Shown piece after piece: positions 6,555 to 36,482 of a DNA stretch of 64,000 nt; within the stretch, counting starts at the first letter, position 1; the number at the start of each line of letters is the position of its first letter. Made by a program: the position numbers and the translations under genes. The notes under the pieces were generated by a model that was not told where the DNA came from, did not search any database, and was given only the letters and a program-made list of their open reading frames with translations. Source of the stretch: an uncultured Acidobacteriota bacterium (lineage in GTDB: Bacteria; Acidobacteriota; Thermoanaerobaculia; UBA5066; Gp7-AA6); NCBI GenBank assembly GCA_963782585.1, contig CAWAKL010000001.1, forward strand, positions 250,133 to 314,132, written 5' to 3'.

Positions 6555-6576
6555 GCCGGAGCCTCCGCTCCGGACG

Positions 6577-7638: not shown

Positions 7639-7669
7639 GACGTCGTGGCTCCGTGCTCAGCGTTGCGGC

Positions 7670-8452: not shown

Positions 8453-8562
8453 GTCTTTCCTCCACTCCAACGTACGCGAGGACGCCGGGCGCCTCTCACC
8501 CGAATCGGCCAACGGCGGCTCGCTGCCGGCGAACGGATGCTATTCTTCGGTGGAGTGATTCG

Positions 8563-18906: not shown

Positions 18907-21063
18907 ATGCGGGACATTCTGGCCTGGGCCCTGACGACGGAGATTCTGGGCCTCGCCGTCCTCCCGATGCTGCGCGCGTACTTCGGCAACCGCCGGGACG
19001 CCGCCCTGCTCTCGCGACCCCTGGGCCTCGCGATCGTCGCGTATCTGGGCTGGGTGGTCTCGCTCCTGCTGAATCCTCCGGGCTTCCGCCGGGTCACACT
19101 CCTCGCGGTCGTCCTGGCCGTGGCCGCCGTCGGGTGGCTCGCCCGCCGCCGCAGCGCCGATGAGACGGCGATCCGCGAGCCGATCTGGGGAGACGAGGAG
19201 AAGCTCGCGGCGATCCTCTTCTGGGCCTCGGCCGGCGTCTTCATCGTCCTTCGGGCCGTCGGACCGGCCATCGTCGGCGCCGAAAAGTTCATGGACCTTG
19301 CGTTCGTGAACTCCCTGGCCCGCTACTCCGCCATGCCGCCCGCGGACACCTGGCTTTCGGGTTCGACGATCAACTACTACTACTGGGGGTACCTGCTCGC
19401 CGCGGCGCAGGCCAAGCTCTCGGGAGTCGCGCCGCTGACCGCGTACAACCTCGCGCTCGCGTCGTTCGCCGGCTTTTCGTTCGTGTCGGCGGCCTGCCTC
19501 GGGCTGCGGCTCTCGCGCGGCAATCTCCGCGTCGGGCTGGGCGCCGGCGGCCTGACCGTCTTCGCCGGCAATCTCGCGGGCGCCTTCCATGCCTGGGCGA
19601 AACCCATCTCGACCGCTTTCGATTACTGGCCCGCGTCGCGCGTCATCGGCCCGGAGCAGCACAAGACGATCAACGAATTTCCTTTCTTCACCTTCTTTCA
19701 TGCGGACCTGCACCCGCACCTCATCGCCTTTCCCTACTTCATCGCGGCCTTCGTGGTCGCGCACCGCTGGGTCGAGGCTGGACGGCCGCAGGCACGCCGC
19801 GCCTGGCTGTGGGTGCTGCTCGTGGCTCTCGTCTGCGGCACGGCGCGCGCGGCGAACTTCTGGAACCTGCCGGTGATGGGCGTCCTGCTCGTCGTGTCGG
19901 GCGCCCTCTGGTTCACCCGGGGCGAACGACTTCCCCGATTCCCGCAGGCCGTCTCCGGAGTCCTCCTCGGCGCGGGCGTATTCGTGCTTTCGCTCGCCCT
20001 CTTCTACCTCTACACGGCGTCCTTCCAGCTCGAGAACCGGGGCCTCGGCCTTGCCACGATGTTCTCCGGGGCGATCGAGCACCTCGGCGTCTGGGGCATC
20101 CTCTTCGCGCTGTGCGGCGCCGCCCTCTGGCCGCGGGCCTCGGCCGCGGGGCCCGAAGACACGGAAGCCGCCCGACGGCGGCGCCACCTGATCCTGACGG
20201 TGGCCGCCAGCGTGTCGCTCGCCACGGGCTTCCTCCTGAAGAGGCCGGCGATGCCGATCCTGCTCTTCCTGCTCTTCCTCGCGGCCCGCTCCACCTGGCG
20301 GAGCCTGCGCGCCGAGACGGCCGATCCCGACGGCGTCTTCGCCGGGCTCCTCGTTCTGCTCGGCCTCGCGGTGATCGCGGGCTGCGAGGTCGTGTATCAC
20401 CGGGACACGTACGGCGTGGAGCTGCAGCGGATGAACACGATCTTCAAGTACTACCACCAGGCCTGGCCGCTGCTCGCGATCGGCGGCGCCGTGTTCGCGG
20501 GCCGCGCGTGGGACGCGGCTCCCGCGCGCCAGCGCGGCCTCTGGCGGCTCGGGCTCTCCGCCCTGGGCGTCCTCGCGCTCGCCTGGCCGTTGAACGTCAC
20601 GATCTCCCGAATCCGGCAGAAGGACGGCCCGCTCTCGCTCGATGCCCGGGGACCGCTCGCGAAGCGCAGCGCCGGCGATGCCGCGGCGGTCGACTGGTTC
20701 CTGAAGAACGCCCCCGTCGGCTCGACGATTCTCGAGGCGTCCGGCGATCCCTACACCGAGTACGCGCGCATCTCCTCGCACAGCGGCGTGCCGACCGTGC
20801 TCGGTTGGGCCAATCACGAGCTGCTCTGGCGCAACAACGACACGGAGGTGCAGGAGCGGCTCAACCGGATCCGCCACTTCTACACGGCGGGGGACCCGCG
20901 CGTCGCCTGGGACACGCTCGGCAAGTACCGCGTCACGCACGTCGTCGTGGGCGACATGGAGCGCCGGACGTATCCGAACGCCGACGTCGTGGGGACGTTT
21001 CCCTTCCTCACCCCCGTCCTGACGGGTGACACGACGATCTACGCCGTCACGCGCCCCGAATGA
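18907..21063 (+). CDS. DUF2298 ('Chlor_Arch_YYY'-type) large polytopic GT-C-like membrane protein
   Basis: ATG 18907 (MRDILAWALTTEILG…). Has the INYYYWGY motif and the conserved INEFPFFTFFHADLHPH block. Confidence 0.75.
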   Translation: MRDILAWALTTEILGLAVLPMLRAYFGNRRDAALLSRPLGLAIVAYLGWVVSLLLNPPGFRRVTLLAVVLAVAAVGWLARRRSADETAIREPIWGDEEKLAAILFWASAGVFIVLRAVGPAIVGAEKFMDLAFVNSLARYSAMPPADTWLSGSTINYYYWGYLLAAAQAKLSGVAPLTAYNLALASFAGFSFVSAACLGLRLSRGNLRVGLGAGGLTVFAGNLAGAFHAWAKPISTAFDYWPASRVIGPEQHKTINEFPFFTFFHADLHPHLIAFPYFIAAFVVAHRWVEAGRPQARRAWLWVLLVALVCGTARAANFWNLPVMGVLLVVSGALWFTRGERLPRFPQAVSGVLLGAGVFVLSLALFYLYTASFQLENRGLGLATMFSGAIEHLGVWGILFALCGAALWPRASAAGPEDTEAARRRRHLILTVAASVSLATGFLLKRPAMPILLFLLFLAARSTWRSLRAETADPDGVFAGLLVLLGLAVIAGCEVVYHRDTYGVELQRMNTIFKYYHQAWPLLAIGGAVFAGRAWDAAPARQRGLWRLGLSALGVLALAWPLNVTISRIRQKDGPLSLDARGPLAKRSAGDAAAVDWFLKNAPVGSTILEASGDPYTEYARISSHSGVPTVLGWANHELLWRNNDTEVQERLNRIRHFYTAGDPRVAWDTLGKYRVTHVVVGDMERRTYPNADVVGTFPFLTPVLTGDTTIYAVTRPE

Positions 21064-22208
21064 GGATCCTGATGGCGATCGACTACTACCGGCCGAACGT
21101 GTCGGGGCTGACGATCTACGTCGAGCATCTCTCCGAAGCGTTGGCGCGGCGGGGCCACACCGTCAGCGTCCTCACCAACCGTCACCTCCCCGAGCTCCCC
21201 CTCGAGAGCCGGGAGAATGGCGTCCGGATCGTGCGTGCCCCGGTGCTCGCGCAGGTCGGAAAGGCTCTCGTGGCCCCGGCGATCCTGGCCCGCGCTCTGG
21301 CGGAGCTTCCGCGTTCCGACGTCCTCCACCTCCACTCGCCCGCCGCCAACGCGATCCCGCTCTCGCTTCTGGCCGCTTCGCTTCGCGTGCCGATCGTGAT
21401 CACCTATCACTGCGACCTGCAGCTCCCGGCCTCCGGCGGGCCGGCGCTCGTGCGGATGCTCGCGCAGGCCTCCCAGAACTTCGCGCTCGACCGCGCCGAC
21501 CGCGTGATCACGTACACCGAGGACTACGCGCGGCACACGGCCCCGCTCGCCGACCGCCTCGAGAAGGTGGGCTGGATCCTGCCGCCGGTGACGGATCCGC
21601 CGAGGACGGGACGCGGCGCAGCCGAGGCCCGGAAGCGCTACGGCATCCGCGGGAAGCCCGTCATCCTCTTTCTCGGCCGCTTCGCCGAGGAGAAGGGGCT
21701 GCCGCATCTGCTGACGGCTTTCGCGGAGGTCCGGCGGCGGTTTCCGGAAGCGATCCTCCTGCTCGCGGGTGCGAAGCAGGTCGCCGGGGAGACGGTCTGG
21801 GAGCGCGTCGCTCCCCTGGCGGCCGATCCGGCGTCGGGCGTCCTCGCGCCAGGCATCGTTCCGCCGGCGGAGATCGCGGACCTCTTCGCTGTCTCCGACG
21901 TGCTCGCGTTGCCGTCGATCAATGCCACCGAGTCCTTCGGCCTCGTCCAGGTGGAGGCGATGCTCTCGGGCGTGCCGGTCGTCGCCTCCGACCTTCCCGG
22001 CGTGCGTCAGCCGGCCCGGCTCACGGGGATGGGCGAGATCGCCCGCATCGGCGACGCCACCGATCTCGCGCGGCAGCTCATCCGCGTCCTCGAGGCGCCC
22101 GAGCGGTACCGCAAAGACGCGGCCGAGATACGCGCGATCTTTCCGCCCGAGAAGACGCTCGACTTCTACGAGGCCACCTATCGCTCGCTCGCGGGAGGCT
22201 CCCGATGA
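21060..22208 (+). CDS. Glycosyltransferase family 4 (GT-B fold)
   Basis: ATGA overlap with the upstream gene. Shows a GT4-like C-terminal pattern (…SINATESFGLVQVEAMLSGVPVVASD…). Confidence 0.85.
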   Translation: MRILMAIDYYRPNVSGLTIYVEHLSEALARRGHTVSVLTNRHLPELPLESRENGVRIVRAPVLAQVGKALVAPAILARALAELPRSDVLHLHSPAANAIPLSLLAASLRVPIVITYHCDLQLPASGGPALVRMLAQASQNFALDRADRVITYTEDYARHTAPLADRLEKVGWILPPVTDPPRTGRGAAEARKRYGIRGKPVILFLGRFAEEKGLPHLLTAFAEVRRRFPEAILLLAGAKQVAGETVWERVAPLAADPASGVLAPGIVPPAEIADLFAVSDVLALPSINATESFGLVQVEAMLSGVPVVASDLPGVRQPARLTGMGEIARIGDATDLARQLIRVLEAPERYRKDAAEIRAIFPPEKTLDFYEATYRSLAGGSR

Positions 22209-23020
22209 CCGAGGCCGACCGCGCCGAAAGCATGCTCCGCGCCCACCTGCGCGAGATGCCGCTCCACCGCGTCATCATGCGCACGCTCGAAGCGCGGATC
22301 CTCGCGGAAGTCCCCTTTCCCCGCCCGATTCTCGACATCGGCTGCGGCGACGGCCACTTCGGGTCCGTCATCTTTCCGGACGGCGCCGACGTCGGCCTGG
22401 ATCCGGGGCTCGGGGACCTCTCCGAAGCCGGGCCCCGCGGCGTGTATCGGCTGCTCGTCTCCGCCGACTCGGGCGCGATGCCCTTCCCGCGGTCGTACTT
22501 CGGGTCGGTCGTCTCCAACTGCGTGTTCGAGCACATCCCCGACATCGACAGGACGGTCGCCGAGATTGCCCGCGTGCTCCGGCCGGGAGGCACGTTCGCG
22601 TGCACGGTCGTGGGCGAGAACTTCAGCGAGTTTCTGACGAGCGCCCGCGCATGGAGCCGTCTGGGCCTGGCGCGAGCGCACCGCGCGTACCTCGACTGGT
22701 TCAATCGGAAGTCGGTTCACTACCGTTTCGATTCGCCGCCGGTCTGGAAAGAGCGGTTCGAGCGGGTCGGACTCGAGGTCCGGCGGTGGCGCTACTACCT
22801 CTCCCCGGCGGCGGCGCGCGCCTTCCACCGAAGCCACTACGTCAGCCTGCCCCACCTCGCCGCGCGCAAGCTGACCGGCCGCTGGGTCCCGGTTCCCGCG
22901 CTCATGGACAACGCGTTCTGGGTGCGACGCCTCTCACGCTATACGGGCGAGCCCGAGCCCGGAGCGGGCTCATGCATCGCGTTCGTCTGCGCGCGGCGCC
23001 CCGATCCTCCTGTAAAATGA
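22205..23020 (+). CDS. Class I SAM-dependent methyltransferase
   Basis: ATGA overlap with the upstream gene. Has the ILDIGCGDGHFG motif. Confidence 0.8.
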   Translation: MTEADRAESMLRAHLREMPLHRVIMRTLEARILAEVPFPRPILDIGCGDGHFGSVIFPDGADVGLDPGLGDLSEAGPRGVYRLLVSADSGAMPFPRSYFGSVVSNCVFEHIPDIDRTVAEIARVLRPGGTFACTVVGENFSEFLTSARAWSRLGLARAHRAYLDWFNRKSVHYRFDSPPVWKERFERVGLEVRRWRYYLSPAAARAFHRSHYVSLPHLAARKLTGRWVPVPALMDNAFWVRRLSRYTGEPEPGAGSCIAFVCARRPDPPVK

Positions 23021-23045: not shown

Positions 23046-24107
23046 ATGCGATTCCTGATTACCGGCGGAGCCGGCTTCATCGGCTCGAACGCGGCGGCGC
23101 GGCTGCGCGAGCTCGGCCACGACGTGGTCGTCTTCGACAGCTTCGTCCGCGCAGCTTCGCGGTTCAACCGCGCATGGCTCGAGAGCCTGCATCCCGCCGT
23201 CCGCTTCATCGAGGGTGACGTCCGCGACGCCGGTGCCCTGCGGGACGCTCTCGCTCCGGATTTCGACGTGGTCCTTCATCTCGCCGGACAGGTCGCCGTG
23301 ACGACCTCGATCGTCGACCCGGTGACCGACTATGAGATCAACGCGCTCGGCACGTTCCGGCTCCTCGAGGAGCTTCGCCGCCGGCACGCCGGCGCCCCCG
23401 AACGGGCGCCGCTTCTGATCTACGCCTCGACCAACAAGGTCTACGGGCACCTGAGCATGGGAGAGACCGTCCGCGACGGCCGCTGGGACTTCCAGAACCT
23501 CCCGACCGGAGTCTCGGAGACGGAGCCCCTGTCGTTCGAATCGCCTTACGGCTGCTCCAAGGGCGCGGCCGATCAGTACGTGATCGACTACCACCGCAGC
23601 TTCGGCCTTCCCACCGTGGCCATGCGGCAGTCCTGCATCTACGGTCCGCGGCAGTTCGGCGAGGAGGACCAGGGCTGGGTGGCGTGGTTCGCGCTCGCGG
23701 CGGTGTTCGGCCTGCCGATCACGTTTTACGGCGACGGGCTGCAGGTCCGCGACCTCCTCTGGGTCGACGACCTCGTGGCGCTCTATCTCGCTGCGGCGCA
23801 GAAGCGGGACACGGTCTCCGGACGGGCCTACAACGTCGGAGGCGGCCCGGGGTACCGGCTGTCGCTCAAGGAGCTCATGGGCATGCTCGAGACGCGCCTG
23901 AAGCGGCCGATCCCGGTCGCCAAGGCGCCCACGCGTCTGGGCGACCAGCCCGTCTTCTACTGCAACGTGGACCGCGCCATGCGCGAGCTCGACTGGAAGC
24001 CCCGCGTTTCGCCGGAGCAGGGCGTGGACCGCCTGCTCGCCTGGATCCAGGGGAACCGTGAAGAGATCGCGCGCTTCCTCACCAAGAAGGGCCTGCAGAT
24101 CGCGTGA
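23046..24107 (+). CDS. NAD-dependent epimerase/dehydratase (extended SDR; CDP-/UDP-sugar epimerase-like)
   Basis: GGAGFIGS Rossmann motif. YxxxK as YGCSK. Confidence 0.85.
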   Translation: MRFLITGGAGFIGSNAAARLRELGHDVVVFDSFVRAASRFNRAWLESLHPAVRFIEGDVRDAGALRDALAPDFDVVLHLAGQVAVTTSIVDPVTDYEINALGTFRLLEELRRRHAGAPERAPLLIYASTNKVYGHLSMGETVRDGRWDFQNLPTGVSETEPLSFESPYGCSKGAADQYVIDYHRSFGLPTVAMRQSCIYGPRQFGEEDQGWVAWFALAAVFGLPITFYGDGLQVRDLLWVDDLVALYLAAAQKRDTVSGRAYNVGGGPGYRLSLKELMGMLETRLKRPIPVAKAPTRLGDQPVFYCNVDRAMRELDWKPRVSPEQGVDRLLAWIQGNREEIARFLTKKGLQIA

Positions 24108-27100
24108 CCCGGCTTCCCCGACGGCGCGCGCGCGCGATCCTTCTCGGAATCCTCCTGCTCGGAGGCCTCTTCCGGTTTCAGGGCCTGAACTGGGACGAAG
24201 GCCATCACCTCCATCCCGACGAGCGCTTCATCTCGATGGTCGAGGAGAAGCTGGCCTTCCCGAAGGAGCCCGGCGCCTACTTCGATTCCAAACGCTCGAC
24301 GCTCAACCCCTACAACCGCGGCGAGGGCTCCTTCGTCTACGGGACGCTGCCCATGGTCATGGCCAAGGCGGTGGCGCCGCTGTTCGGGAAGAAGGGCTAC
24401 GGCGAGACGCACCTGGTCGGCCGCGCGCTCTCGGGCTTCTTCGACCTCGTCACCGTGTGGCTCGTCTACCGGATCACCCGCCGCTTCACGCACCGCCGCG
24501 CCGCGCTCTTCGCCGCGGGGCTCTCGGCCTTCTGCGCGCTGGGCATCCAGCTCTCCCACTTCTGGGCCGTCGATGCCGTCCTGACGGCCTTCACCGCCGC
24601 GGCGCTCCTCGGGGCGGTCCGGATTGCCCAGGACCGTTCGGGCCTCGCCGGCGATGCCCTGACGGGAGCGGCGATCGGCCTGGCCGCGGCGTGCAAGATC
24701 ACGGCTCTCGCGCTCTTCGCGCCGGTCGGCATCGCCCTGCTCGTTCGGGCGCTCGCACGCGGGCGGGCCCGCGGCTGGATGGTCGGGCAGATCTTCGCCG
24801 CGATTCCCCGCGGCCTTCTCCTGCTCGCCTCGGCCGCGGTGACCGTCCGGATCTTCTTGCCGCACGTCTTCCTCGGGCCGAGCCCCCTCTCCTTCCGCCT
24901 CGACCCGCGCTGGATCGACGACCTGAGGAAGCTCAAGCTCTTGTCGAGCTCGGTCGCCGGGTTCCCGCCGGCCCTCCAGTGGGCGGGCCGCACGCTCTTT
25001 TTCCCCGTCGAGAACTTCGTCCTCTGGGGAGCGGGCGTGGCATTCGGCCTCGCGGCGATCGCCGCCCTCCTCTGGTCGTTCGGCGCCATCCTCCGCCGCC
25101 GGCAGTTCGTCCTCGCTCCGCTGAGCCTCTACGTCCTCTTTCTCTTCGGATACCACGGCCTGACGCTCGTGAAGTCGATCCGGTACTTCTACCCGGCGTA
25201 CCCCGCCCTGGCCGTGCTGACCGGCGTCGCATTCTCCTCGTGGCTGTCGCGCTCGCGGACTCCCGGCCGCGCGCGCTTCGCCCGAATCTGCGCGCTCGTC
25301 GTTCTCGCCGCGACGTTCCTCTGGGCGGTGGCCTTCACGTCGATCTACCGCCGCCCGAACACGCGCGTGGAGGCGACCCGGTGGATCTACTCGCATGTGC
25401 CGCCGCCGAAAGCCTTCGCCAACGAGAGCTGGGACGACGGCCTGCCGATGCCGATGCCCAACTACGACCCGGCGCGTTATGCCGGGCCTTCGCTGCCCCT
25501 CTTCGACCCGGATTCCCCCGAGAAGGTGGAGGCCGTCGTCACAGCCCTGACGCAGGCCGATTGGGTGGCCGTGACCTCCGGCCGCGTCTACATGAACGTC
25601 ACGCGCGTGCCGGTCGTCTTTCCGATGTCGATCGCCTACTACCGGGCTCTGTTCGACGGTGAGCTCGGCTTCCGGCGGGCGGCCGACTTCACGTCCTACC
25701 CGTCCCTCGGCCCGCTGCGTTTTCCCGACGACCGTGCCGAGGAGCAGTTCACCGTCTACGACCATCCGCGCGTCCTGCTCTTCCAGAAGACCCCGGAGTT
25801 TTCGCCCGCGAAGGCCCGCGCTCTGCTCTCGGCCGCCATTCCCCAGACCCCGCCGACCATGCACGACTGGGAGCGCTGGCCGCGGGCCCTGCGCCGCGTC
25901 AGCGCGCCGGTGCGTCCCGATCGGAGCGCGCGGCCCGAAACTCCGGCGCCTTCGTACGCCGAGCCGGGCGAGCCCGTGGGCCGCTCCTTCGGCGCCGCGG
26001 CCGTCTGGTATCTCGGCCTCGCCCTCGTCGGGCTGCTCGGCGCGCCGCTCTGCTTCGCGGCCTTCCCGCGGTTCGCCGACCGCGGCTTCGGATTCGCCCG
26101 GATCTTCGGGCTCGTGATCGTCACGTATCTGCTGACCCTCGCAGTGACGTTCCGCGTCCTGGCCAACGGACGTCGGGCGGCCCTCGTCTGCCTCCTGCTT
26201 CTCGCGGCCGCATCCGCCTGGACCTTCCTGCGGAACCGCCACGACCTCCTCCGCTTCGTGCGCGAGAACCGCCGCGCGCTCCTCCAGAGCGAGCTCGTGT
26301 TTGCCGCGGGCTTCGTCCTCTTTCTCGGCATCCGCGCCCTCAACCCCGAGATCTTCTGGGGCGAGAAGCCGATGGACTTCTCGATCCTGAACATCCTCGC
26401 GCGCACGCGCTCCCTGCCGCCGTCCGATCCGTGGCTGGCGGGAGCTCCGCTCGGCTACTACACGTTCGGCCAGGAGATGGTCGTCTTCCTGACGTTTCTG
26501 ACGAACCTCTCCACGCGCTTCACGTTCAACCTGGCCTTCGGCATGCTGGGCGGCACGATCCTGCAGGGAGCGTTCTCGCTGGCGCGCAACTGGGGCGGCC
26601 GCCTTCGCGCGGGCATCGCCGGGGCCGTGCTCACGCTGCTCCTCGGCAATCTCTCGGGCCTGCGCGAATGGCTGGAGCGCAAGCGCCCCCTCGACTGGGA
26701 CTACTTCTGGGCGACCTCGCGGGTCATCCGCGACACGATCAACGAATACCCGTTCTGGAGTCTCGTCTTCGCGGACCTCCACGCCCACGTTCTCGCGATT
26801 CCAGTCTTTCTCTTCTTCGCCGCGGCCGCTCTCCACTACGTCCGGCTCCACGCCCTCCCGGCGGGGTCCTGGGGCCGGCGGCTCTCGGGCGCGGTGCTGC
26901 TGGGTTTCGTCGCGGCGTGCCAGGCCCTCACGAACGCGTGGGACGTGCCCGTTCTCACCGGGATGCTCGTCCTCGTCATCCCCGCCGCGGCCGCCCTGAT
27001 GCCGGGAGTGACGCTCGCGGGTCTCGGCCGGGCGGGCGCGGGGCTTCTCGTAGGCGCCGGGTCGGCCTATCTCTTCGCCCTGCCCCTCTGGTTCCGCGCG

Positions 27101-29059
27101 GGAGGCCGGCCGGGAATCGGAAAGAACCTCGAGCCTTCCTCGCTGGGCGTCGATCAGCTCACCGTCTTCGGCCTCTTCGTCTTCCTGGCGCTCGGATGGT
27201 GGATTTCTTCCGCCGGCAGCCGACTCGCGGGACGGGGCCTCGGCCGGCCGGCGCGGTGGGTCGCCGGGCTGCTCCTGGTCGCCGCGCTCGTGTTCCTCGC
27301 CCTGCGCTTCCCGGACGCGTTCCTTCTGGTCTGCGTGCTGCTCTTTCTCGCGGCCTTCTTCTTCTTCGCCGAAGAGAAAGAAGACCGCCTGACGCTCGCG
27401 TTTCTCGCGGCGGCGTTCTTCCTCGTCCTCTTCACCCAGCGTTTCTACATCGTCGACCGGATGAACACGTTCTTCAAGCTCTACCTGGAAGCCTGGATCC
27501 TCTTCGCGATCGGCACCGCCGTTCTCGTGTTCCGCGGCCGGAATCGCCGGGGCGTGATCGACGCGTGGCCGTGGCCCGCGAAGGCCGCCACCGCGCTCCT
27601 CGTTCTGGCCGCCCTCTTCACGAGTGTGACGGGGGGACGCGCCGCCGTGAGCCGCCATTTCGCGCCGTACTCGGGGCCGTCCCTCGACGGGCTCCGATAC
27701 CTGCAGGAGCAGCGGCCGGGCGAGTACCGCGCCGTCGAGTGGCTGCGACGCAACGTGGCGGGCACTCCCGTCGTGCTCGAGGCCCAGGGGCCCTCGTACC
27801 AGGACTTCGGCCGGATCTCGATGCTCACGGGTCTTCCGACGCTGCTCGGCTGGGACTATCACGTCAAACAGCGGGGCAATCCGGAAAGCGAAATCGAAAC
27901 GCGCAAGAACGTGGTCCGGACGATCTACTCGCACACCGAGGCCGGAAGAGCGATCGCGTACCTCAAACGCTACGGTGTCGGCTACATCTACGTCGGCCCG
28001 GTCGAGCGCAAGACGTATCCGCCGGCGGGCTTGCTGAAGTTCCGTACGAACCCGCAGCAGTTTCCGCTCGTGTACGAGAACCCCGAGGTGCAGATCTACC
28101 GCGTGGCAGGAGGTCCGGCGCAGGACGTGCTGGTTCCCGTCCAGGAGACCCTGCCGCAGACCACCGCCTCCGGGCCTCCCGCCGACGAGCCGGAAGAGAA
28201 ACCCGCGGTGGCGGCTGAGGCCTCGGGCGAGGCCCCCTGGGCGAAGCTCCGCGAGCCGCGCGGCATCGCGGTCGACGGACGAGGACGCGTCTGGGTCGCG
28301 GATTTCGGCAATTCGCGCCTGCGCGTCTTCGATCGCGACGGGGGCTCGCTCGGCGGATGGGGAGGCCGCGGTTCCGGCGAGTTCGGCTTCCGCGAGCTCT
28401 GCGGTCTCGCGATCGCGGGAGACGCGCTCTACGTCGCCGACACCTGGAACGGCCGGGTCCGCGCGTACACCGTCGAGGGCCTCCTGCGCGGCTCGGCCGC
28501 CGAGCTCTACGGCCCGCGCGGCGTCGCCGTCGCTCCGAACGGGCGGGTCTGGGTTGCGGACACGGGCAATCACCGGATCGTCAACTACGGCCCGCTCCTC
28601 GACGATCCGCGCATCGTCGGGAAAAAGGGCGGACGCCCCGGCGAGTTTGCGAGCCCCATCGGCATCGCGGCCTCCCCCGGCGGCGAGATCTACGTCGGCG
28701 ACACGGGCAACCGCCGGATCCAGGTCCTGCATCCGGACGGCTCCCTCGCCCGCGTGCTCGCGTTCCCGGGCTGGGGCGAGAACGTGGAGCCCGGCCTCGC
28801 CGTCGACGCCGACGGAACGATCTGGGCCACCGATCCCGCTACGGCCTCCGTCCTGGCGCTCGATCCGAGCGGCGAAGTGAAGACGCGGATCTCTGCGGAC
28901 GAGAACGGGCGCAAGTTCGAGAACCCGACGGGGCTCGCAATCGACGCGAAAGACCGTATCCTCTACGTCGTCAACTCGGGCTCGAGCACGGTCTCGAAGA
29001 TTCGACTGGCGGCCGCGGCGACTCCCGCCGCTCCGCGGGGCAAGGGGGCGACGCGTTGA
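24104..29059 (+). CDS. 1651-aa fusion protein: N-terminal PMT/ArnT-like GT-C domain + DUF2298 ('YYY') membrane domain + C-terminal NHL-repeat beta-propeller
   Basis: GTG 24104 overlaps the epimerase stop (GTGA). N-terminus resembles GT39 (…HPDERF…). The middle domain parallels gene 18907..21063 (INEYPFWSLVFADLHAH). The C-terminus has six NHL-like repeats (VADTGNHRIV, VGDTGNRRIQ, …). Confidence 0.8.
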   Translation: MTRLPRRRARAILLGILLLGGLFRFQGLNWDEGHHLHPDERFISMVEEKLAFPKEPGAYFDSKRSTLNPYNRGEGSFVYGTLPMVMAKAVAPLFGKKGYGETHLVGRALSGFFDLVTVWLVYRITRRFTHRRAALFAAGLSAFCALGIQLSHFWAVDAVLTAFTAAALLGAVRIAQDRSGLAGDALTGAAIGLAAACKITALALFAPVGIALLVRALARGRARGWMVGQIFAAIPRGLLLLASAAVTVRIFLPHVFLGPSPLSFRLDPRWIDDLRKLKLLSSSVAGFPPALQWAGRTLFFPVENFVLWGAGVAFGLAAIAALLWSFGAILRRRQFVLAPLSLYVLFLFGYHGLTLVKSIRYFYPAYPALAVLTGVAFSSWLSRSRTPGRARFARICALVVLAATFLWAVAFTSIYRRPNTRVEATRWIYSHVPPPKAFANESWDDGLPMPMPNYDPARYAGPSLPLFDPDSPEKVEAVVTALTQADWVAVTSGRVYMNVTRVPVVFPMSIAYYRALFDGELGFRRAADFTSYPSLGPLRFPDDRAEEQFTVYDHPRVLLFQKTPEFSPAKARALLSAAIPQTPPTMHDWERWPRALRRVSAPVRPDRSARPETPAPSYAEPGEPVGRSFGAAAVWYLGLALVGLLGAPLCFAAFPRFADRGFGFARIFGLVIVTYLLTLAVTFRVLANGRRAALVCLLLLAAASAWTFLRNRHDLLRFVRENRRALLQSELVFAAGFVLFLGIRALNPEIFWGEKPMDFSILNILARTRSLPPSDPWLAGAPLGYYTFGQEMVVFLTFLTNLSTRFTFNLAFGMLGGTILQGAFSLARNWGGRLRAGIAGAVLTLLLGNLSGLREWLERKRPLDWDYFWATSRVIRDTINEYPFWSLVFADLHAHVLAIPVFLFFAAAALHYVRLHALPAGSWGRRLSGAVLLGFVAACQALTNAWDVPVLTGMLVLVIPAAAALMPGVTLAGLGRAGAGLLVGAGSAYLFALPLWFRAGGRPGIGKNLEPSSLGVDQLTVFGLFVFLALGWWISSAGSRLAGRGLGRPARWVAGLLLVAALVFLALRFPDAFLLVCVLLFLAAFFFFAEEKEDRLTLAFLAAAFFLVLFTQRFYIVDRMNTFFKLYLEAWILFAIGTAVLVFRGRNRRGVIDAWPWPAKAATALLVLAALFTSVTGGRAAVSRHFAPYSGPSLDGLRYLQEQRPGEYRAVEWLRRNVAGTPVVLEAQGPSYQDFGRISMLTGLPTLLGWDYHVKQRGNPESEIETRKNVVRTIYSHTEAGRAIAYLKRYGVGYIYVGPVERKTYPPAGLLKFRTNPQQFPLVYENPEVQIYRVAGGPAQDVLVPVQETLPQTTASGPPADEPEEKPAVAAEASGEAPWAKLREPRGIAVDGRGRVWVADFGNSRLRVFDRDGGSLGGWGGRGSGEFGFRELCGLAIAGDALYVADTWNGRVRAYTVEGLLRGSAAELYGPRGVAVAPNGRVWVADTGNHRIVNYGPLLDDPRIVGKKGGRPGEFASPIGIAASPGGEIYVGDTGNRRIQVLHPDGSLARVLAFPGWGENVEPGLAVDADGTIWATDPATASVLALDPSGEVKTRISADENGRKFENPTGLAIDAKDRILYVVNSGSSTVSKIRLAAAATPAAPRGKGATR

Positions 29060-31760
29060 ACGAAACCGCAGCAGCGGAGCTCGCGGGCGGCCGGCGGAGA
29101 ATCTCCGGCCGGCTCGCCGCGGCCCTGCTCCTCTTCGCGGCGCTCGCCGTCGCTTCCCGCTTCTGGGCGCTCGGCGACCGGCCCCTCCACCACGACGAGT
29201 CGATCCACGCCTATCAATCGTGGACGCTCTCGCGGGGAGGCGACTGGCGCTATGACCCCGCGTACCACGGCCCGTTCCTCTACTACCTGAACGCCCTCGT
29301 CTACAAGATCTTCGGCGCCACCGACGCGACGGCGCGCCTCGCGCCGGCGTTCTTCGGAGTGATCCTCATCGCGTTTGCCTTCCCGCTCGCCCGCTGGCTC
29401 GGCCGCAAGGCCGCCGTGGCCTACGCGATCTTCGTCCTGCTGACCGCGCACTATCTCTATTTCTCCCGGTTCATCCGCGAGGATCTCTATTCGCTGGTCT
29501 TCACGCTCGGCACGATCGTCGCCTTCCAGCGGTTCCTGGAGACGGACCGGGCGCGATGGCTGCTCGGCTCGGCGGCCTGCTTCGCCTTCGCCGGGGTCAC
29601 GAAGGAGAACGCCTACATGACCGGCGTCCTCTTCGTCGCGTACGGGCTCTGGTGCCTCATCCGCACCGCGCCCTCGCCGGCGGGCCCCAAACCCGGTGCC
29701 GCCGTGGCGGCCGGCTGGCGCTGGACGATCGCGCGCATCGCGCCGGTCGTCTCGGCCGGCCTGCTCTTCCTCGTCATCTGGGCGGCGATGTACACGGCCT
29801 TCGGCAAGTACCCCGGCGACTGGCTCGCGATCCCCAAGGCCGTCAAGTACTGGATGGGCCAGCACGCCATCGCCCGCATCCCGGGGCCCTGGTGGTACTA
29901 CTTCCCGCAGCTCGCCGCCTACGACACCGCGATCGTCGTCGCCGCGCTCTTCGCGTTTCGCCGGCGCGACTGGCGTACCGATCCCTTGCTCCGGACGGTC
30001 CTCGTGGCGCTTCCCCTCTTCGCCGCCTATGTCGCTCTGCATGAGTGGAAGCCCGCCTTCGGCGGGCCCGCGCTGCTCGTGGCGCTCGGCCTGTCCGTCG
30101 TGGCGTTCGTGGTCGCCGGATGGGTCTGGAAACCGCCACCGGTCTCGGAGCTCTCTCCCTTCCTCCAGTTCGTCGCCTTCTGGGCCGTCGGCTCGCTCGC
30201 CATCTACGCATGGGCCCGCGAGAAGGTGCCCTGGCTCACGGTCCATCCCCTTCTGCCTCTGACGGTGCTCGCCGCCATCGGCGTCGCGCGGCTCTGGGAG
30301 GAGCGGCCGAAGCCCTATGCGCGCGCCGGTCTCGTCGCCATCGCCGCGCTTCTCGCGGTCAACGCCTGGGGCGCGTACCTCGCGGCCTTCCGCTACGGAG
30401 CGCACGACGTCGAAAAAGTGCCCGGGCACGCCGAGATGCTCGCGTACGTGCAGACCTCGGAGGATCTCGTCCGCTCCCTTCGCGCCGTTCAGCAGGCGAA
30501 GGGGCGGGTGCCCGACGGCCAGAACCTCGTCACCGTCGCGGGTGAAGCCGCCTGGCCCCTGACCTGGTACCTGCGCGACATCCCGACGACGTGGGCCTCG
30601 CGGATCGAGCAGGCCTCGACACCGGTCATCATCGCGGACTGGGACGCCGAGGGGGCGCTCGAGAAGCAGCTCAGCGACAAGTACGACGCGAAGCGCGTGC
30701 CGATTCGCGCCTGGTGGTTCCCGGAGATTCGCAAGGAAGCGGGGAAACCCACCCGCCCGAGCTTCCGCGACATGCTCCGCCTCTGGCTCTTCCACGAGAT
30801 CTGGAGCCCGATCGGGTCGCAGGACGCGACCGTCTACGTCCGCAAGGACCTCGGCGGCAGCGGCATGCTCGAGCCGCTCTCGGTCGAGGTGCAGGACACG
30901 TCCGCGCGGGACTACCCCAACGAAGCCGTGGAGCTTCCCGCGGGACGCGAGTTCGGCGGACCCGGCGCGGGCCCCGGCCAGCTCTCCGAGCCGCGAGGAG
31001 TCGCCGCGGACGCGAAGGGCAACCTCTACGTCGCGGATTCGAAGAACAGCCGGATCGCGATCTTCGACGGCAACGGTGCGTTCCTGCGGACGGTCGGTTC
31101 TCGGGGCGACGGCGACGGCCAGCTCAACGAGCCGAGCGGCGTCGCCGTCGGGCCGGACGGCGAGATCTACGTCGCCGACACCTGGAACCACCGCGTCGCG
31201 CGCTTCGGGCCGAACGGGGAGTGGCGCGGGCAGTGGAAGGATTCGGACCGTGCTTTCTTCGGTCCGCGCGCGGCCGTCCTCTCGGGCGGATCCTTTACGT
31301 CGCCGACACGGGAAACAAGCGGATCGTCCGCTTCGACGCCGAGGGCAACGTCGCGGGCTCCTGGGGGGGCGCCGGAAACGGACCTGGCCAGTTCGTCGAG
31401 CCCGTCGGGCTCGCCGCGGACGCGGGAGGGCGGATCTACGTCGCGGACACCGGCAACCACCGTGTCCAGGTCTTCGAGGCCGACGGCCGGTTCGTCCGGC
31501 AGTTCCCCGTCTACGGCTGGAAGGATTTCTACACCGAGCCCTACCTCGCCGTGGGCCCGTCCGACGGCGTCTTCGTCACGGATTCCTGGAAGGGCCGGAT
31601 CGCGCACTACGACGCGGCGGGCAATCTCCAGAAGTCGTACTCGGCGAAGGGGCTGAAGAGTCCGACGGGGATCGCGCTCGATGCGTTCGGGAGGGTGTTC
31701 GTTTCGGACCGCGGACAGAACCGGATCGTCTCGTGGGGGCTCGCCGACTTGATGAGGTAG
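29056..31760 (+). CDS. PMT-like GT-C membrane glycosyltransferase (TIGR03663-like) fused to a C-terminal NHL-repeat propeller; apparent single-base frameshift near 31265-31275
   Basis: TTG 29056 overlaps the upstream stop (TTGA). The N-terminal membrane domain is in frame 1 up to …FFGPR. The NHL repeats (YVADTGNKRIV, YVADTGNHRVQ) continue in frame 0 to stop at 31760. Confidence 0.7.
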
Positions 31761-31763
31761 TCG

Positions 31764-33806
31764 CTACCTCAGCCGCACCTCGCGGAGATGCACATGCTGG
31801 GGCTCTCCGGCGTTCACGTCCCGCACCGAGATTCTCACCGTCGCCACCGGGCCGCCGATCGGCGGTAGCGGCACCGTCACCGTGGGGTCGGCAGGCAAGT
31901 CCCGGTAGAGCTGCGAGAAAGACCCCTCTCCCGATGGCCCGGAGACGTCGACCGTGATCTCGCAGTGCATGCTGCCGAGCGTCAGAGCCAGCTCCCGAAG
32001 CGGCCGCGGCGGGTCGAAGTGGACGGCCACGACCGCGGGATTCGCGCCCCCGGTTCGGACGACCGAAGCATCCTCGCCGTCGAAGAGGTGGAACGCTCCG
32101 CCGACGTCGAAGACGGAATGTTCGACTTCGGCTTTCGCGCCGCCGATAACGACCTCTTCCCTCACGAGCCTTCGCCATTCCTGCTGCTCGGCCGCGAGAA
32201 CCTTCTCGAATTCCGGCGCGTAGCGCAGCCAGACGGCGCGGAACCCGGGCCGGCCGTCGGGGTACAGAATCGTCTTCTCGAGGCGCAGCGGCTCGAAGCG
32301 CGGGTCGGCCTTCGCCTGCTGATATTCGGGCTCCGTCAGGACGGCGAGGGTCTCCGCGGGGATGTCCTGCTTCTGATAGCGGAACCAGTCGATGTTGGCG
32401 ACCAGCATGCGCTCCTGCCCGGGAACGAAAAACTCCAGAAGGTCGTCCATGCCGTTGGCCCAGTCCGGTGAGACCACGATGAGGGCGTCGGGGTGACGCT
32501 TTCTCAGCCGCGCGACCTCGCCAAGGACCTCGCGCCCCCCCCACTGCATTCCGTAAAGGCCGTAGTCGCGATACCACGTCGGTCCGTGGACGAGGGCGTC
32601 GGCGAGCATCGCCCCCTGCGACACGGCGAGGCCCGCCCAGACGAGCGCGCCGACGACGATCGGGCGCACCCATCGCGTGAGAAACCGCAGAAGAGGATCC
32701 GCGGCGACTCCGACGAGCATCCCGAACACGACGACCAGGATCATCGCCCGCGTGATGCCGGAGTGGACGATGGCCGCTCCGGCCGGCGCGCAGAGGAAGG
32801 CCACGAGCAGGGTGCGCTCGCCGGGTGAGCGGATCCGCCAGGCGCAGAGGACCGCGCCGGCCACGATGAAGGGCAGGGCCAGCAACGGAACGTGCGTGTA
32901 ACCCTTCATCGTGTGGCGGGCGATGTCGTCCGGCGGATTCGGGCGGAACCAGTACCGCGGGTTGTAGGCGTTGGCGTACTCGCGGCCATAGAGGCCGAGC
33001 TTCTCCGGCAGACTGCGCCGGGAGTCCGTCCAGTAGGAGTCGAGGCTCCGCAGGCGCTCCCCGACTTCGCGCGAGTGCGCCCGGACGAATCTCACGTACG
33101 GGAGCGCGAGAAGAACGGCCAGGGCCGCGGCGGCGAGTACCGTCCGGCGGTTCTTCCAGTGGAATCGGGCGTCGACGACTCCGAGCAGCAGCGCCGTCGC
33201 GACGATGACCGGCTGGAACGTGTTGTACCCGTAAAACGTGAGGGCGCCGAAGACGGCGGCGGCGTAGAGCGAGCGGGTTCGCCCGCCCCGGTAGCGCAGG
33301 TAGAAGTAGAGGAACCAGACGTAGGCCGCGGTCGCGAGCATGAGCTCGAAGGCGATGCGCGTGTGCAGGAACCATCCCGGGAAGCCGGAGAGCGCGAGGA
33401 TGCCGACCCAGTAGAAACGGAGCTTCAGGAAGTCGCGGAGGATCAGGCCGGCCGCCAGCATGGCCGAGAAGAGGACAGCGACCGGCACAGCGCGCGCGAC
33501 GAAGACCGACCGGGGCAGGAGCTTCTCCGGAAGAACCTGGAGGTAGACGCCGACGCTCAGGTTGAAGAACTCGGTGTTGCGGAAGTAGGCCGGAAAGAGC
33601 TCGCCCTTCTCGCCGCGAAACCCGTTGGCCGAGAGGCGCGCGGCCTGGACGGTCTGCACGGCCTCATCGCAGAAGAAGAAGATCGGGAACCTCTCGAGGC
33701 CCCAGAGCCGGGTCCCGAGAAAGACGGCGAGCGTCAGCGCGAAGAAGACGAGGTTTTGCCGGGGCGTGGGGCCGTCGCGGCCTTCGCCCATCGCCCTCGC
33801 GTCCAT
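31764..33806 (-). CDS. PMT/ArnT-like GT-C membrane glycosyltransferase with a C-terminal beta-sandwich (galactose-binding-like) domain
   Basis: 680 aa. FFCDEAVQ (DE motif) precedes multiple TM segments. Convergent with gene 29056..31760. Confidence 0.75.
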   Translation of the reverse strand: MDARAMGEGRDGPTPRQNLVFFALTLAVFLGTRLWGLERFPIFFFCDEAVQTVQAARLSANGFRGEKGELFPAYFRNTEFFNLSVGVYLQVLPEKLLPRSVFVARAVPVAVLFSAMLAAGLILRDFLKLRFYWVGILALSGFPGWFLHTRIAFELMLATAAYVWFLYFYLRYRGGRTRSLYAAAVFGALTFYGYNTFQPVIVATALLLGVVDARFHWKNRRTVLAAAALAVLLALPYVRFVRAHSREVGERLRSLDSYWTDSRRSLPEKLGLYGREYANAYNPRYWFRPNPPDDIARHTMKGYTHVPLLALPFIVAGAVLCAWRIRSPGERTLLVAFLCAPAGAAIVHSGITRAMILVVVFGMLVGVAADPLLRFLTRWVRPIVVGALVWAGLAVSQGAMLADALVHGPTWYRDYGLYGMQWGGREVLGEVARLRKRHPDALIVVSPDWANGMDDLLEFFVPGQERMLVANIDWFRYQKQDIPAETLAVLTEPEYQQAKADPRFEPLRLEKTILYPDGRPGFRAVWLRYAPEFEKVLAAEQQEWRRLVREEVVIGGAKAEVEHSVFDVGGAFHLFDGEDASVVRTGGANPAVVAVHFDPPRPLRELALTLGSMHCEITVDVSGPSGEGSFSQLYRDLPADPTVTVPLPPIGGPVATVRISVRDVNAGEPQHVHLREVRLR

Positions 33807-34460: not shown

Positions 34461-36482
34461 TTGATTCACACGTCGGACTTCGCCCCCGCGCGCGACGAGG
34501 CGGGTTCGTCGTTCGCGGATCCGGCGGCGCGCGCTTCCAGCGGTCTGCTCGCCCTCGGGATCGCCGGCGTCCTGCTTCTGACGGCCGCCTGCTGGCCGAT
34601 GCAGCGGCACGCGCTCCCGGCCTGGGCGGCCGCGACCCTCGCGGCTGGCCTCCTCTCGTGGCTCGCCGTCGCCTGGAAATCGGCCGGCGCGGCGGAGGCG
34701 TTGCCCGGGATCGCGCCGGCGCCGGCCAACGTCAACTGGCTGGCCCCCGCGCTCCTCGCCGCCCTCGCGCTCGCAGCTCTCTCCTGGACGCGCACGGCGT
34801 CCGGCCGGTTCGAGATGGTTGGCGTCGCCTCCTGGCTCGGCGCGGTCGTGATCTGGCTCTGGGGGTGGTCGCAGAGCTTCCACGAGACGCCTCGCGACGC
34901 GCGGCCCGCGCCACCGGCGCCAGCGTCTCCCCGCGCTCGACTGTCCGTGGGGCTCGCCCTCCTCGCCATTCTCGCCGTCGGCGCGTTCTTCCGGTTCCAC
35001 GACCTCGCCGGAATTCCTCCGCATCCCGGAAGCGATCATGCCGAGGACCTCCTGAACGTCGAGCAGCTCTCGCGAGGGGAGCGGCCCGTCTTCTTCCCGA
35101 CGAACACGGGGCAGGCGCCGCTCCCCTTCTACTTCGAGTACCTGCTGGTGAAACTCGGCCTGCCGATCAACTACCTCATGCTCAAGATCTCGACCGCCCT
35201 CGTGGGGATGCTCGCGATCCCGGCGATGTACGTTGTCGGCCGCGAGCTCGGCGGCGCGCCCCTCGGGCTCGTGGCCGCCGCGCTGTGCGCCTGGAGCAAG
35301 TGGCCGACGCTGGGCGCACGCCGGGGCCTCACGTTCGCGTGGGCGGTCTTCCCGGCGGCCCTCTTCCTGGCGGCGATCCTCCGGTACATGCGGCGAGGCG
35401 ATCGTCCGAGCGCGCTCTCCGCGGGCTTCTGGCTGGGCCTCGGCCAGTACGGATACAACGCTTTCAAGATCGTCCCGGCGATGGTGCCCCTCGCCTTCGG
35501 GCTCTGCCTCTTCGATCGGCGCTGGAGGCGCCATCGCGGGCGGCTCGTCTTCGACGGCGTCCTCGTCGCGGCCACGGCCCTGCTCGTGTTCCTGCCGCTG
35601 CTCCAGTACATGTTGCAGCGTCCCCAGGACTTCTGGTACCGCGCGATGACGCGCGCGGGCAGCCAGGAGAGGCCGCTCCCCGGCTCGCCCGCCGCCCTCT
35701 TCGCCGGAAACCTCGGCCGCATGGCCCTGGCTTTCCACTACCGCGGGGATCAGGCCTGGATCAACACCGTGGCGGAGGAGCCGTTTCTCGATCCCGTCAC
35801 GGGCGCGTTGCTGCTCGCTGGCCTCGTCGTCGCGGCCGTTCTGATCGTTCGAGGCTCGACCCGCTGGGCCCTCGTGGTCCTCTCCCTGTTCGTGCTGACG
35901 CTCGCCTCGACGCTCGCGCTCGCCTTCCCGGTCGAGAACCCCGGGATCAACCGCGCCTCTGTGGCCATCCCCTCCGTTCTCGTGCTCGCGGGGTTGCCGG
36001 TCGTCTGGCTGCTGCGCCGGGCGCGGGAACGCGGACGCGGATGGCTGTTGGTCGCCGGCGGCGTTCTCGCGGCGCTGGGCGCGCTGTCCCTCCAGCAGAA
36101 CTACGAGAGTTACTTCGTGCGCTTTCGCCACGAGCAGGTGACGATCCTCGAGCCAACCATGGACGTCGTGCGGGTCATGCGCGAGTACCGCGACAACGAG
36201 GGCGTCCCGTTCGACAACGCCTATCTCCTCAACACGACGAACTGGATCGACGGCCGCTGCATCGACTTCGAGATCGGGGACCGCCTCTGGTCCGGGCCCC
36301 ACGACGTCCCGCCCGCACAGCCGGTGCCCCTCATCCGGGACCGGCCGCTCGTGTTCTTCGTCCACCAGAGCGACCGCCCGCGCCGGGAGCAGCTCAAGAC
36401 CGACTACCCGAACGCCGAGGAACACTTCGTCGCGCAGCCGTTCCGGGACCGGAGCTACTTCACGTATTTCGTTCCGCGCTGA
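34461..36482 (+). CDS. Glycosyltransferase family 39 (ArnT/PMT-like) GT-C membrane protein
   Basis: 673 aa. TTG 34461; an alternative ATG is at 34599. Has PGSDHAED (DE-type motif) and many TM helices. Confidence 0.7.
   Translation: MIHTSDFAPARDEAGSSFADPAARASSGLLALGIAGVLLLTAACWPMQRHALPAWAAATLAAGLLSWLAVAWKSAGAAEALPGIAPAPANVNWLAPALLAALALAALSWTRTASGRFEMVGVASWLGAVVIWLWGWSQSFHETPRDARPAPPAPASPRARLSVGLALLAILAVGAFFRFHDLAGIPPHPGSDHAEDLLNVEQLSRGERPVFFPTNTGQAPLPFYFEYLLVKLGLPINYLMLKISTALVGMLAIPAMYVVGRELGGAPLGLVAAALCAWSKWPTLGARRGLTFAWAVFPAALFLAAILRYMRRGDRPSALSAGFWLGLGQYGYNAFKIVPAMVPLAFGLCLFDRRWRRHRGRLVFDGVLVAATALLVFLPLLQYMLQRPQDFWYRAMTRAGSQERPLPGSPAALFAGNLGRMALAFHYRGDQAWINTVAEEPFLDPVTGALLLAGLVVAAVLIVRGSTRWALVVLSLFVLTLASTLALAFPVENPGINRASVAIPSVLVLAGLPVVWLLRRARERGRGWLLVAGGVLAALGALSLQQNYESYFVRFRHEQVTILEPTMDVVRVMREYRDNEGVPFDNAYLLNTTNWIDGRCIDFEIGDRLWSGPHDVPPAQPVPLIRDRPLVFFVHQSDRPRREQLKTDYPNAEEHFVAQPFRDRSYFTYFVPR

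Follow-up and report, generated by a model that had tools for sequence, protein, structure and literature searches.

The window analyzed here is a 64,000-nucleotide stretch of DNA from an uncultured Acidobacteriota bacterium (contig CAWAKL010000001.1, positions 250,133 to 314,132 of the forward strand), and our subject is one of its genes, which encodes a protein of 1651 amino acids (aa) with two polytopic membrane modules and a C-terminal NHL beta-propeller. The gene is a single open reading frame (ORF) with a GTG start and zero internal stops, and has the following features (TM, transmembrane; SDR, short-chain dehydrogenase/reductase).

24104..29059, + strand: full gene; GTGA holds its start together with the stop of the SDR gene upstream, and TTGA its TGA stop together with the TTG start of the gene downstream
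24104..25351, + strand: membrane domain of module 1 (aa 1-416), 11 predicted TM helices, modeled GT-C fold, PMT_2-like
24218..24223, + strand: D39-E40 within W30-D31-x2-H-H-L-H-P-D-E-R-F, aligning with the HHDE of the TIGR03663 neighbor
25352..25903, + strand: predicted periplasmic alpha/beta domain of module 1 (aa 417-600), with conserved E441, W443-D444-D445, K474, and Y552-D-H554-P555
25904..25987, + strand: Pro/Arg-rich inter-module linker (aa 601-628), low pLDDT
25988..27652, + strand: membrane domain of module 2 (DUF2298/TIGR03662 YYY, aa 629-1183), about 16 TM helices
26360..26377, + strand: G-E-K-P-M-D (aa 753-758), candidate acidic motif following the TM helix paired with TM1 of module 1 in the alignment
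26456..26470, + strand: Y-Y-T-F-G (aa 785-789), degenerate "YYYxG" signature with invariant Y, Y, and G
26774..26788, + strand: D-L-H-A-H (aa 891-895), conserved motif at the predicted periplasmic end of a TM helix
27653..28108, + strand: predicted periplasmic alpha/beta domain of module 2 (aa 1184-1335), putatively homologous to its module 1 counterpart
28109..28195, + strand: Pro/Glu/Ala-rich flexible linker (aa 1336-1364), as judged from the sequence and from low pLDDT at model residues 752-759
28196..29005, + strand: six-bladed NHL beta-propeller (aa 1365-1634), whose N-terminal strand closes blade 6

All three parts of the protein are matched by hidden Markov models. Pfam assigns PMT_2 (PF13231) to aa 101-216 (46.6 bits against a gathering threshold of 26.1), DUF2298 to aa 673-1134 (283.8 bits), and NHL to the C-terminus (121.6 bits against a cutoff of 20). 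In NCBIfam, TIGR03662 (Chlor_Arch_YYY) matches aa 629-1334 (462.3 bits against 300.25) and covers profile positions 2 to 726 of 727. AlphaFold models were made in two overlapping pieces. The model of aa 1-639 (pLDDT 85.6, pTM 0.90) consists of 11 TM helices and an alpha/beta domain, and the model of aa 601-1651 (pLDDT 86.3) of about 16 TM helices, an alpha/beta domain, a low-confidence linker, and 24 beta-strands, which make up six 4-stranded blades. The original prediction, which had been drawn from the letters of the sequence, described an intact ORF with PMT-like, YYY, and six-bladed NHL parts, and this description holds in every part, including the number of blades.

Neither of the two outcomes that had been named as refuting this description was seen: the NHL assignment is upheld by its Pfam match, and no hidden frameshift or stop was detected in the ORF. 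Among 748 matches retrieved by a protein search over 5.8 billion proteins, the best 120 were inspected, and almost all of these are 1615-1685 aa long and carry the same Pfam families (PF13231/PF02366, PF10060, and PF01436) down to 56% identity. Their database names are only "YYY domain-containing" or "DUF2298 domain-containing protein [Acidobacteriota]." The G+C content of third codon positions is 0.90 and is uniform along the ORF, as in genuine genes of the window. Because the window has 70% G+C, long ORFs frequently arise by chance; an antisense ORF of 1591 aa (23957..28732, - strand) was rejected as a high-GC shadow ORF with an Arg/Glu/Gly-rich nonsense translation.

Module 1 (aa 1-600) superposes best on catalytic GT-C transferases in a fold search with its AlphaFold model, and by this modeled structure it has a GT-C fold. 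The stretch directly after TM1, W30-D31-x-x-H-H-L-H-P-D39-E40-R41, is invariant in 41 orthologues. In 144 representatives (35-63% identity), D39, E40, and R41 are at least 97% conserved, as are R24, Q149, H152, R249, and R360-Y361 and, in the periplasmic domain, E441, W443-D444-D445, K474, and H554-P555. Conserved acidic residues in the first extracytoplasmic loop after TM1, by which GT-C enzymes are recognized, are therefore present in module 1, and D39-E40 is a candidate catalytic acidic pair in the first periplasmic loop. The two marks of family GT39, PF02366 (PMT) and MIR, are both without a match in the 1651-aa protein (Pfam, E value of 0.01), and PF02366 matches some orthologues weakly. 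Module 1 also misses the cutoff of TIGR03663, the family of the next gene downstream (16.7-18.5 bits against 126.25), and in a profile comparison (hhalign) aligns with that family from TM1 and the HHDE motif to about aa 218 (93% probability, E value of 3e-7).

In module 2 (aa 629-1335), four motifs are shared by fused and standalone YYY proteins, and all of them lie at predicted periplasmic helix ends or in loops. The E, K, and M of GEKPMD do not vary among fused and standalone proteins, its D is conserved in at least 90% of them, and E754 is at least 90% conserved in 83 diverse representatives. In YYxxG, fused and standalone members alike have an invariant Y, Y, and G, and the fused clade does not keep the third Tyr of YYYxG. 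DLHxH has an invariant D, L, and first H and a last H conserved in at least 90% of fused and standalone proteins, with all of these residues at least 90% conserved in the diverse representatives. The fourth motif, R1119-M-N-T-x-F-K1125, is conserved in all three sets. A Pfam scan of members of the YYY profile returned only DUF2298, apart from stray matches to DUF6541 (two members) and PMT (one member).

To compare the two modules with hhalign, we used deep alignments of diverse representatives (144 N-modules and 83 YYY modules). The profiles match with a probability of 79.9% (E value of 1.4e-5, score of 54.6), and the control scores are 21.0 for a reversed profile and 23.3-30.4 for ten block shuffles. 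The match runs from the final two TM helices into the beginning of the periplasmic domain (aa 347-434 of the N-module and aa 1113-1220 of the YYY module), and within it RVEATRWIYSHV pairs with EYRAVEWLRRNV. A relaxed alignment is collinear over about 500 columns. It places TM1 of module 1 opposite the module 2 helix at aa 723-746, HPDE opposite GEK of the GEKPMD motif, SFVYG opposite YYTFG, and VYDHPRVLLF (aa 551-560) opposite VYENPEVQIY (aa 1323-1332). The periplasmic domains of the two modules also share an A-x-x-W helix, and the TIGR03663 family matches module 2 in the same C-terminal region (hhalign, 56% probability). Our reading, held with moderate confidence, is that DUF2298/YYY belongs to the GT-C type as a divergent module, extended by three helices at its N-terminus. 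Because this profile comparison points to module 2 as a remote paralogue of module 1, the 1651-aa protein would, at the same moderate level of confidence, be a covalent tandem of two paralogous GT-C-type modules.

The protein is predicted to have 27 TM helices (11 + 16), with its N-terminus inside and its C-terminus outside. GT-C enzymes have a cytoplasmic N-terminus, and this orientation, together with five Arg residues within the first ten, led us to take the N-terminus as cytoplasmic. With 11 and then 16 helices, both alpha/beta domains and the propeller would be periplasmic. The short predicted loops contain about 32 Lys and Arg residues on the cytoplasmic side versus about 12 on the periplasmic side, a positive-inside bias. 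The helices at aa 804-831 and 834-846 are weakly hydrophobic and may not be TM segments; since they form a pair, the orientation is the same under either reading. The helix count, the loop charges, the GT-C orientation, and the conserved polar motifs on the predicted periplasmic face all favor the periplasmic propeller that the original prediction had assumed. In a profile search against the Protein Data Bank (PDB), the propeller matches TRIM71, TRIM2, Thin, and PknD (1e-24 to 1e-56), and the best matches by both sequence and structure are these non-enzymatic NHL domains.

The fusion was sought in other genomes, as the original prediction had proposed, and was found in more than 115 protein clusters and, with one genome scanned per species, in 52 species-level loci, nearly all of them in metagenome-assembled genomes (MAGs) labeled Acidobacteriota or Thermoanaerobaculia. 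The closest relatives are from MFD Acidobacteriota MAGs (83-84% identity), and two Chloroflexota loci among the 52 align over aa ~20-1334 only. The architecture had been considered unusual. In the sense of rare, it is not: in Thermoanaerobaculia, this is the form that the gene normally takes. A search with the N-terminal 620 residues against 1.84 billion representatives gave 4791 matches (1510 of them below 1e-30), the best 150 of which were classified by phmmer as N-module with YYY (95), N-module alone (51), N-module with YYY and NHL (3), and N-module with NHL (1). A few of these 150 are proteins of about 2440 aa with two YYY copies. Variants are also seen by Pfam: PMT_2 is joined to DUF2298, with no NHL, in a protein of 1602 aa from Chloroflexaceae and one of 1542 aa from Dehalococcoidia, and to NHL, with no DUF2298, in an additional gene of locus L010 (8198-10954). 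Two propeller segments follow the YYY module in loci L018, L022, L035, L038, and L047, and an additional NHL gene stands behind the Agl23-like gene in L004, L008, L014-L016, L027, and L030. The modules thus recombine naturally. The class counts and the Pfam-confirmed variants show that the core of N-module and YYY is widespread, and that NHL is a lineage-specific addition fixed in Thermoanaerobaculia.

The fusion gene is the fifth of six operon genes, in which four of the five junctions overlap by 4 nucleotides (ATGA, ATGA, GTGA, and TTGA). The other five genes are as follows (SAM, S-adenosylmethionine).

18907..21063, + strand: standalone YYY/DUF2298 protein, first gene of the operon, 31% identity to module 2 (E value of 3e-53)
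21060-22208, + strand: GT4 glycosyltransferase, ATGA overlap at 21060
22205-23020, + strand: SAM methyltransferase, ATGA overlap at 22205
23046-24107, + strand: GalE/RmlB-like SDR (NAD-dependent sugar epimerase/dehydratase), after a 25-nucleotide gap from the methyltransferase gene
29056-31759, + strand: TIGR03663 (Agl23-family, PMT-like) membrane module with its own NHL propeller, 315.6 bits against a cutoff of 126

About 40 related loci have the same gene order, and the TIGR03663 and TIGR03662 genes are adjacent here and in about 45 related loci. A BLASTP comparison of the N-module with the product of 29056-31759 gave no or only marginal similarity. A one-base frameshift lies near position 31291, inside the propeller of this downstream gene: the alignment with an intact orthologue covers 29056-31290 in one frame and switches to a second frame for 31242-31757, and TCC TTT ACG is read where S-L-Y-V is expected. 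The gene is probably not a pseudogene, and the frameshift is probably a homopolymer error of the long-read assembly.

Both membrane domains had been thought to occur separately elsewhere in the island. For the YYY domain, this is correct (18907..21063). The proposed separate N-module, at 34461..36482, was not borne out: its product has a BLASTP E value of 0.22 against module 1, no Pfam family, and no PDB relative, and its sole match is an archaeal STT3 model (E value of 0.003). This gene and its neighbors beyond the operon, including three that run convergent with it, are listed below (FAD, flavin adenine dinucleotide).

31764-33806, - strand: 680-aa polytopic protein without a Pfam family, opening with a TM helix and then "FFFCDEA"
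33820-34383, - strand: 187-aa lipoprotein-like product without a Pfam family, whose C-terminal domain matches the C-terminus of the 680-aa protein (33-37%, tblastn)
34461-36482, + strand: 673-aa polytopic protein without a Pfam family, opening with a TM helix and then "FRFHDL...DHAED"
37485-39014, - strand: PRK07208-type flavoprotein, an FAD oxidoreductase, convergent with the operon
38840-39625, - strand: GT2 of the polyprenyl-phosphate-hexose synthase type; best NCBIfam matches are dolichyl-phosphate hexose transferase, PgfS, ArnC, AglJ, and PpgS
39615-40538, - strand: UbiA-family enzyme, closest to decaprenyl-phosphate phosphoribosyltransferase models (E value of 2e-53)

The GT-C-like openings of the two polytopic proteins were judged by eye and are a lead rather than evidence.

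The UbiA, GT2, and FAD genes occur together in 27 of the 27 loci whose flank extends that far, even where the genes in between differ. The UbiA product misses the NCBIfam cutoffs of the decaprenyl-phosphate phosphoribosyltransferase models (181.6 versus 234 bits and 173.2 versus 207 bits), which are nonetheless its best matches. Judging from the best NCBIfam matches, we tentatively favor polyprenyl-phosphate sugar synthesis over a carotenoid pathway for the trio, and regard the three proteins as candidate makers of lipid-linked pentose or hexose donors. Such a cluster would offer the type of donor supply that GT-C enzymes need.

We propose that the 1651-aa protein is an inner-membrane enzyme with two periplasm-facing GT-C-type modules, polyprenyl-phosphate sugar donors, and a tethered propeller, a reading that we hold to be somewhat better than an even bet. 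Module 1 would be a PMT_2/ArnT-like GT-C glycosyltransferase with an invariant Asp-Glu pair in its first periplasmic loop, and module 2 a very divergent paralogue with periplasm-facing motifs of its own. Both modules would draw sugars from polyprenyl-phosphate carriers made by the neighboring UbiA-type phosphoribosyltransferase and GT2, and would pass them on, in the periplasm, to a protein or glycan of the envelope. The propeller, on a flexible linker of ~30-40 residues, would most likely capture or hold the acceptor near the active sites, or dock there on the NHL-bearing Agl23-like partner.

Several observations weigh against this proposal. The link between the modules is a single profile match of 80% probability, and hhalign between shallow alignments of close orthologues (effective number of sequences of about 2) was negative. 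A YYY-only profile had no match to PDB sequences at E values up to 10, and when the model of aa 601-1651 was used for fold searches, propeller matches filled both result lists, which left the comparison for module 2 unreadable. The UbiA and GT2 matches in NCBIfam are below curated cutoffs, and the trio could serve another pathway. In the literature, we found no acceptor, ligand, or enzymatic activity for any DUF2298/TIGR03662 protein, and the one studied TIGR03663 member, Agl23, is reported to have flippase-type rather than transferase activity (PMC11182771).

The last point bears on a different explanation, in which the membrane modules handle lipid-linked sugars as flippases, like Agl23 of Haloarcula hispanica, and the fusion is a machine for the export or presentation of sugar-lipids. 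The adjoining gene is a bona fide TIGR03663/Agl23 member (315.6 bits), with which module 1 shares its N-terminal region by hhalign, and purified Agl23 translocated M5GN2-PP-Dol in liposomes and rescued a yeast rft1 deletion (PMC11182771). However, module 1 itself scores far below the TIGR03663 cutoff, finds its best superposition among catalytic transferases, and has an invariant Asp-Glu at the catalytic position of PMT/ArnT-type enzymes, and the big conserved periplasmic domains and the tethered propeller are poorly explained for a pure flippase. We therefore consider a flippase function improbable. Slightly less probable still is that one membrane module is a catalytically dead scaffold and the other alone transfers sugar. 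Module 2 would be the natural suspect, with its acidic motif departing from the canonical DE and no detectable sequence match to solved GT-C enzymes; yet many invariant periplasm-facing polar residues are retained in both modules despite wide divergence, and a standalone YYY gene is kept in the same operon, which speaks for an independent activity of the YYY module.

The propeller, too, could be read otherwise, as an enzyme of the lyase, lactonase, or hydrolase type that acts on a glycan or small molecule in the periplasm instead of binding the acceptor. It matches Pfam SGL (1.3e-13) and Vgb_lyase, and its nearest named NCBIfam family is ScyF (scytonemin biosynthesis), but the Vgb_lyase and ScyF scores are below their cutoffs (27.1 versus 50 and 89.7 versus 350), the closest matches by sequence and structure are the non-enzymatic domains named above, and no metal-binding constellation was identified, although the three-dimensional model was not used for that. 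An enzymatic propeller is, in our estimate, about as unlikely as the flippase function. Finally, the long ORF could be an artefact of assembly or frameshift that fuses separate genes, given that this assembly has indel errors (the 1-nucleotide frameshift in the gene that follows, and LigD, which is apparently split). This explanation, whose probability we regard as negligible, is refuted by the same fusion of about 1.6 kaa, which recurs across many projects in over 115 independent clusters and at 52 species-level loci, and it is at odds with the uniform G+C content of third codon positions.

Returning to the proposed tandem transferase, its closest known counterparts are GT-C enzymes that use polyprenyl-phosphate sugars, namely ArnT (GT83) and Pmt1/2/4 (GT39), to which module 1 has only 14% identity. 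In contrast to these, the 1651-aa protein has no MIR domain or PF02366 match and adds a second membrane module and a propeller. Characterized GT-C enzymes form the dimers Pmt1-Pmt2 and EmbA-EmbB, and the putative covalent tandem would be comparable to them. Module 2 is a full-length member of TIGR03662/DUF2298, and proteins with the N-module and YYY also occur in Chloroflexota (1542-1602 aa). The long TIGR03662 form described in NCBIfam has two YYY copies plus tetratricopeptide repeats (TPRs), whereas here there is one YYY copy, an NHL propeller at the end instead of TPRs, and YYTFG instead of YYYxG. The downstream gene belongs to the same family as Haloarcula hispanica Agl23, which is described as flippase-associated and has no NHL domain; module 1 shares with it the region of TM1 and H-x-D-E but misses the family cutoff. 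In PknD, an extracellular NHL sensor domain (1rwi) is coupled to a kinase and not to glycosyltransferase modules.

There are precedents for GT-C enzymes with extracytoplasmic recognition domains: PMTs carry MIR, Emb and AftD carry carbohydrate-binding modules, and TMTC1-4 carry a lumenal TPR domain that confers protein-specific O-mannosylation. TMEM260 is likewise a GT-C enzyme fused to a lumenal TPR domain, with protein-specific O-mannosylation (PMC10214176). The design of TMTC1-4 and TMEM260, GT-C with extracytoplasmic protein-interaction repeats, is the same as that seen here, where it is bacterial, has NHL and not TPR, and comprises two membrane modules. One DUF2298 neighborhood in Chloroflexi includes a protein with PMT_2 and PA14 (PMC8756737). 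Because analogous GT-C enzymes carry TPR, MIR, PA14, or carbohydrate-binding domains, it is plausible, by analogy, that the NHL propeller binds or positions the acceptor.

The mycobacterial EmbA/B/C and AftA/B/D are arabinofuranosyltransferases on the decaprenylphosphoryl-arabinose donor pathway, and Pseudomonas TfpW is involved in pilin arabinosylation. The Emb and Aft accessory domains are carbohydrate-binding modules in place of NHL, the UbiA match here is below its curated cutoff, and no DprE1 or DprE2 orthologues were identified here. Still, we tentatively conjecture that DUF2298/YYY is an unrecognized GT-C branch, and that the hetero-tandem of Thermoanaerobaculia selects its acceptor through the NHL propeller and the Agl23-like partner with NHL, to build an envelope glycan dependent on polyprenyl-phosphate-pentose/hexose or to glycosylate envelope proteins, akin to the mycobacterial arabinan systems. 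We consider this wider conjecture possible, and clearly less probable than the tandem transferase itself.

The protein family is already present in databases under placeholder names, and a binding domain on a GT-C enzyme is an established design. Not found described were an NHL domain as the binding domain of a GT-C enzyme, a covalent tandem of two GT-C-type modules, and the GT-C nature of DUF2298. Our literature searches returned no combination of GT-C with an NHL propeller and nothing on glycosyltransferases of Thermoanaerobaculia; DUF2298 had incidental mentions only, and TIGR03662, TIGR03663, and "YYY domain" gave nothing relevant. DUF2298/TIGR03662 and its partner TIGR03663 are large families in Acidobacteriota, Chloroflexota, and Archaea, and the N-module alone accounts for 4791 representative clusters. 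The locus provides these families with a coherent context, consisting of a tightly coupled operon, a candidate donor cluster, conserved motifs of both modules that are predicted to face the periplasm, and a detachable propeller. If the wider conjecture is true, DUF2298 and the TIGR03662/TIGR03663 pair would gain a first function, and an NHL propeller would for the first time be seen as the specificity module of a glycosyltransferase. The proposed model, if true, would establish a new GT-C branch and a new type of acceptor-recognition domain, and would hint at a still unknown envelope glycan of a lineage widespread in soils and sediments. Should the model fail, the gene remains a well-delimited example of an abundant family of uncharacterized membrane proteins.

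Other genes of the window touch on these subjects more loosely. A secreted 272-aa protein (36543-37361, - strand) has a C-terminal SLH-like segment (Pfam SLH, 20.1 bits against a cutoff of 20.8), and its gene is present in one to three copies in related loci; this sub-threshold match in a neighboring gene is the sole basis for a putative S-layer link. Another PMT_2 protein (10393-11364, + strand) is apparently without the first TM helix and the DE loop (its profile match begins at position 27). Its start may be mis-called or shifted, and a methyltransferase-like ORF follows in 10737-12152. Genes of nonhomologous end joining are found at 44112-46704 (+ strand), 43170-43895 (- strand), and 17862-18803 (- strand) and encode Ku, LigD, and a separate ATP-dependent ligase that adjoins the operon. 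LigD is apparently split into two overlapping ORFs, with its ligase C-terminal domain divided at about 45565-45692, probably by an indel error. A module of the cell-envelope-stress type lies upstream of the island (5799-8512, - strand) and combines a LiaF-like membrane protein with a His_kinase-type sensor and a LytTR response regulator.

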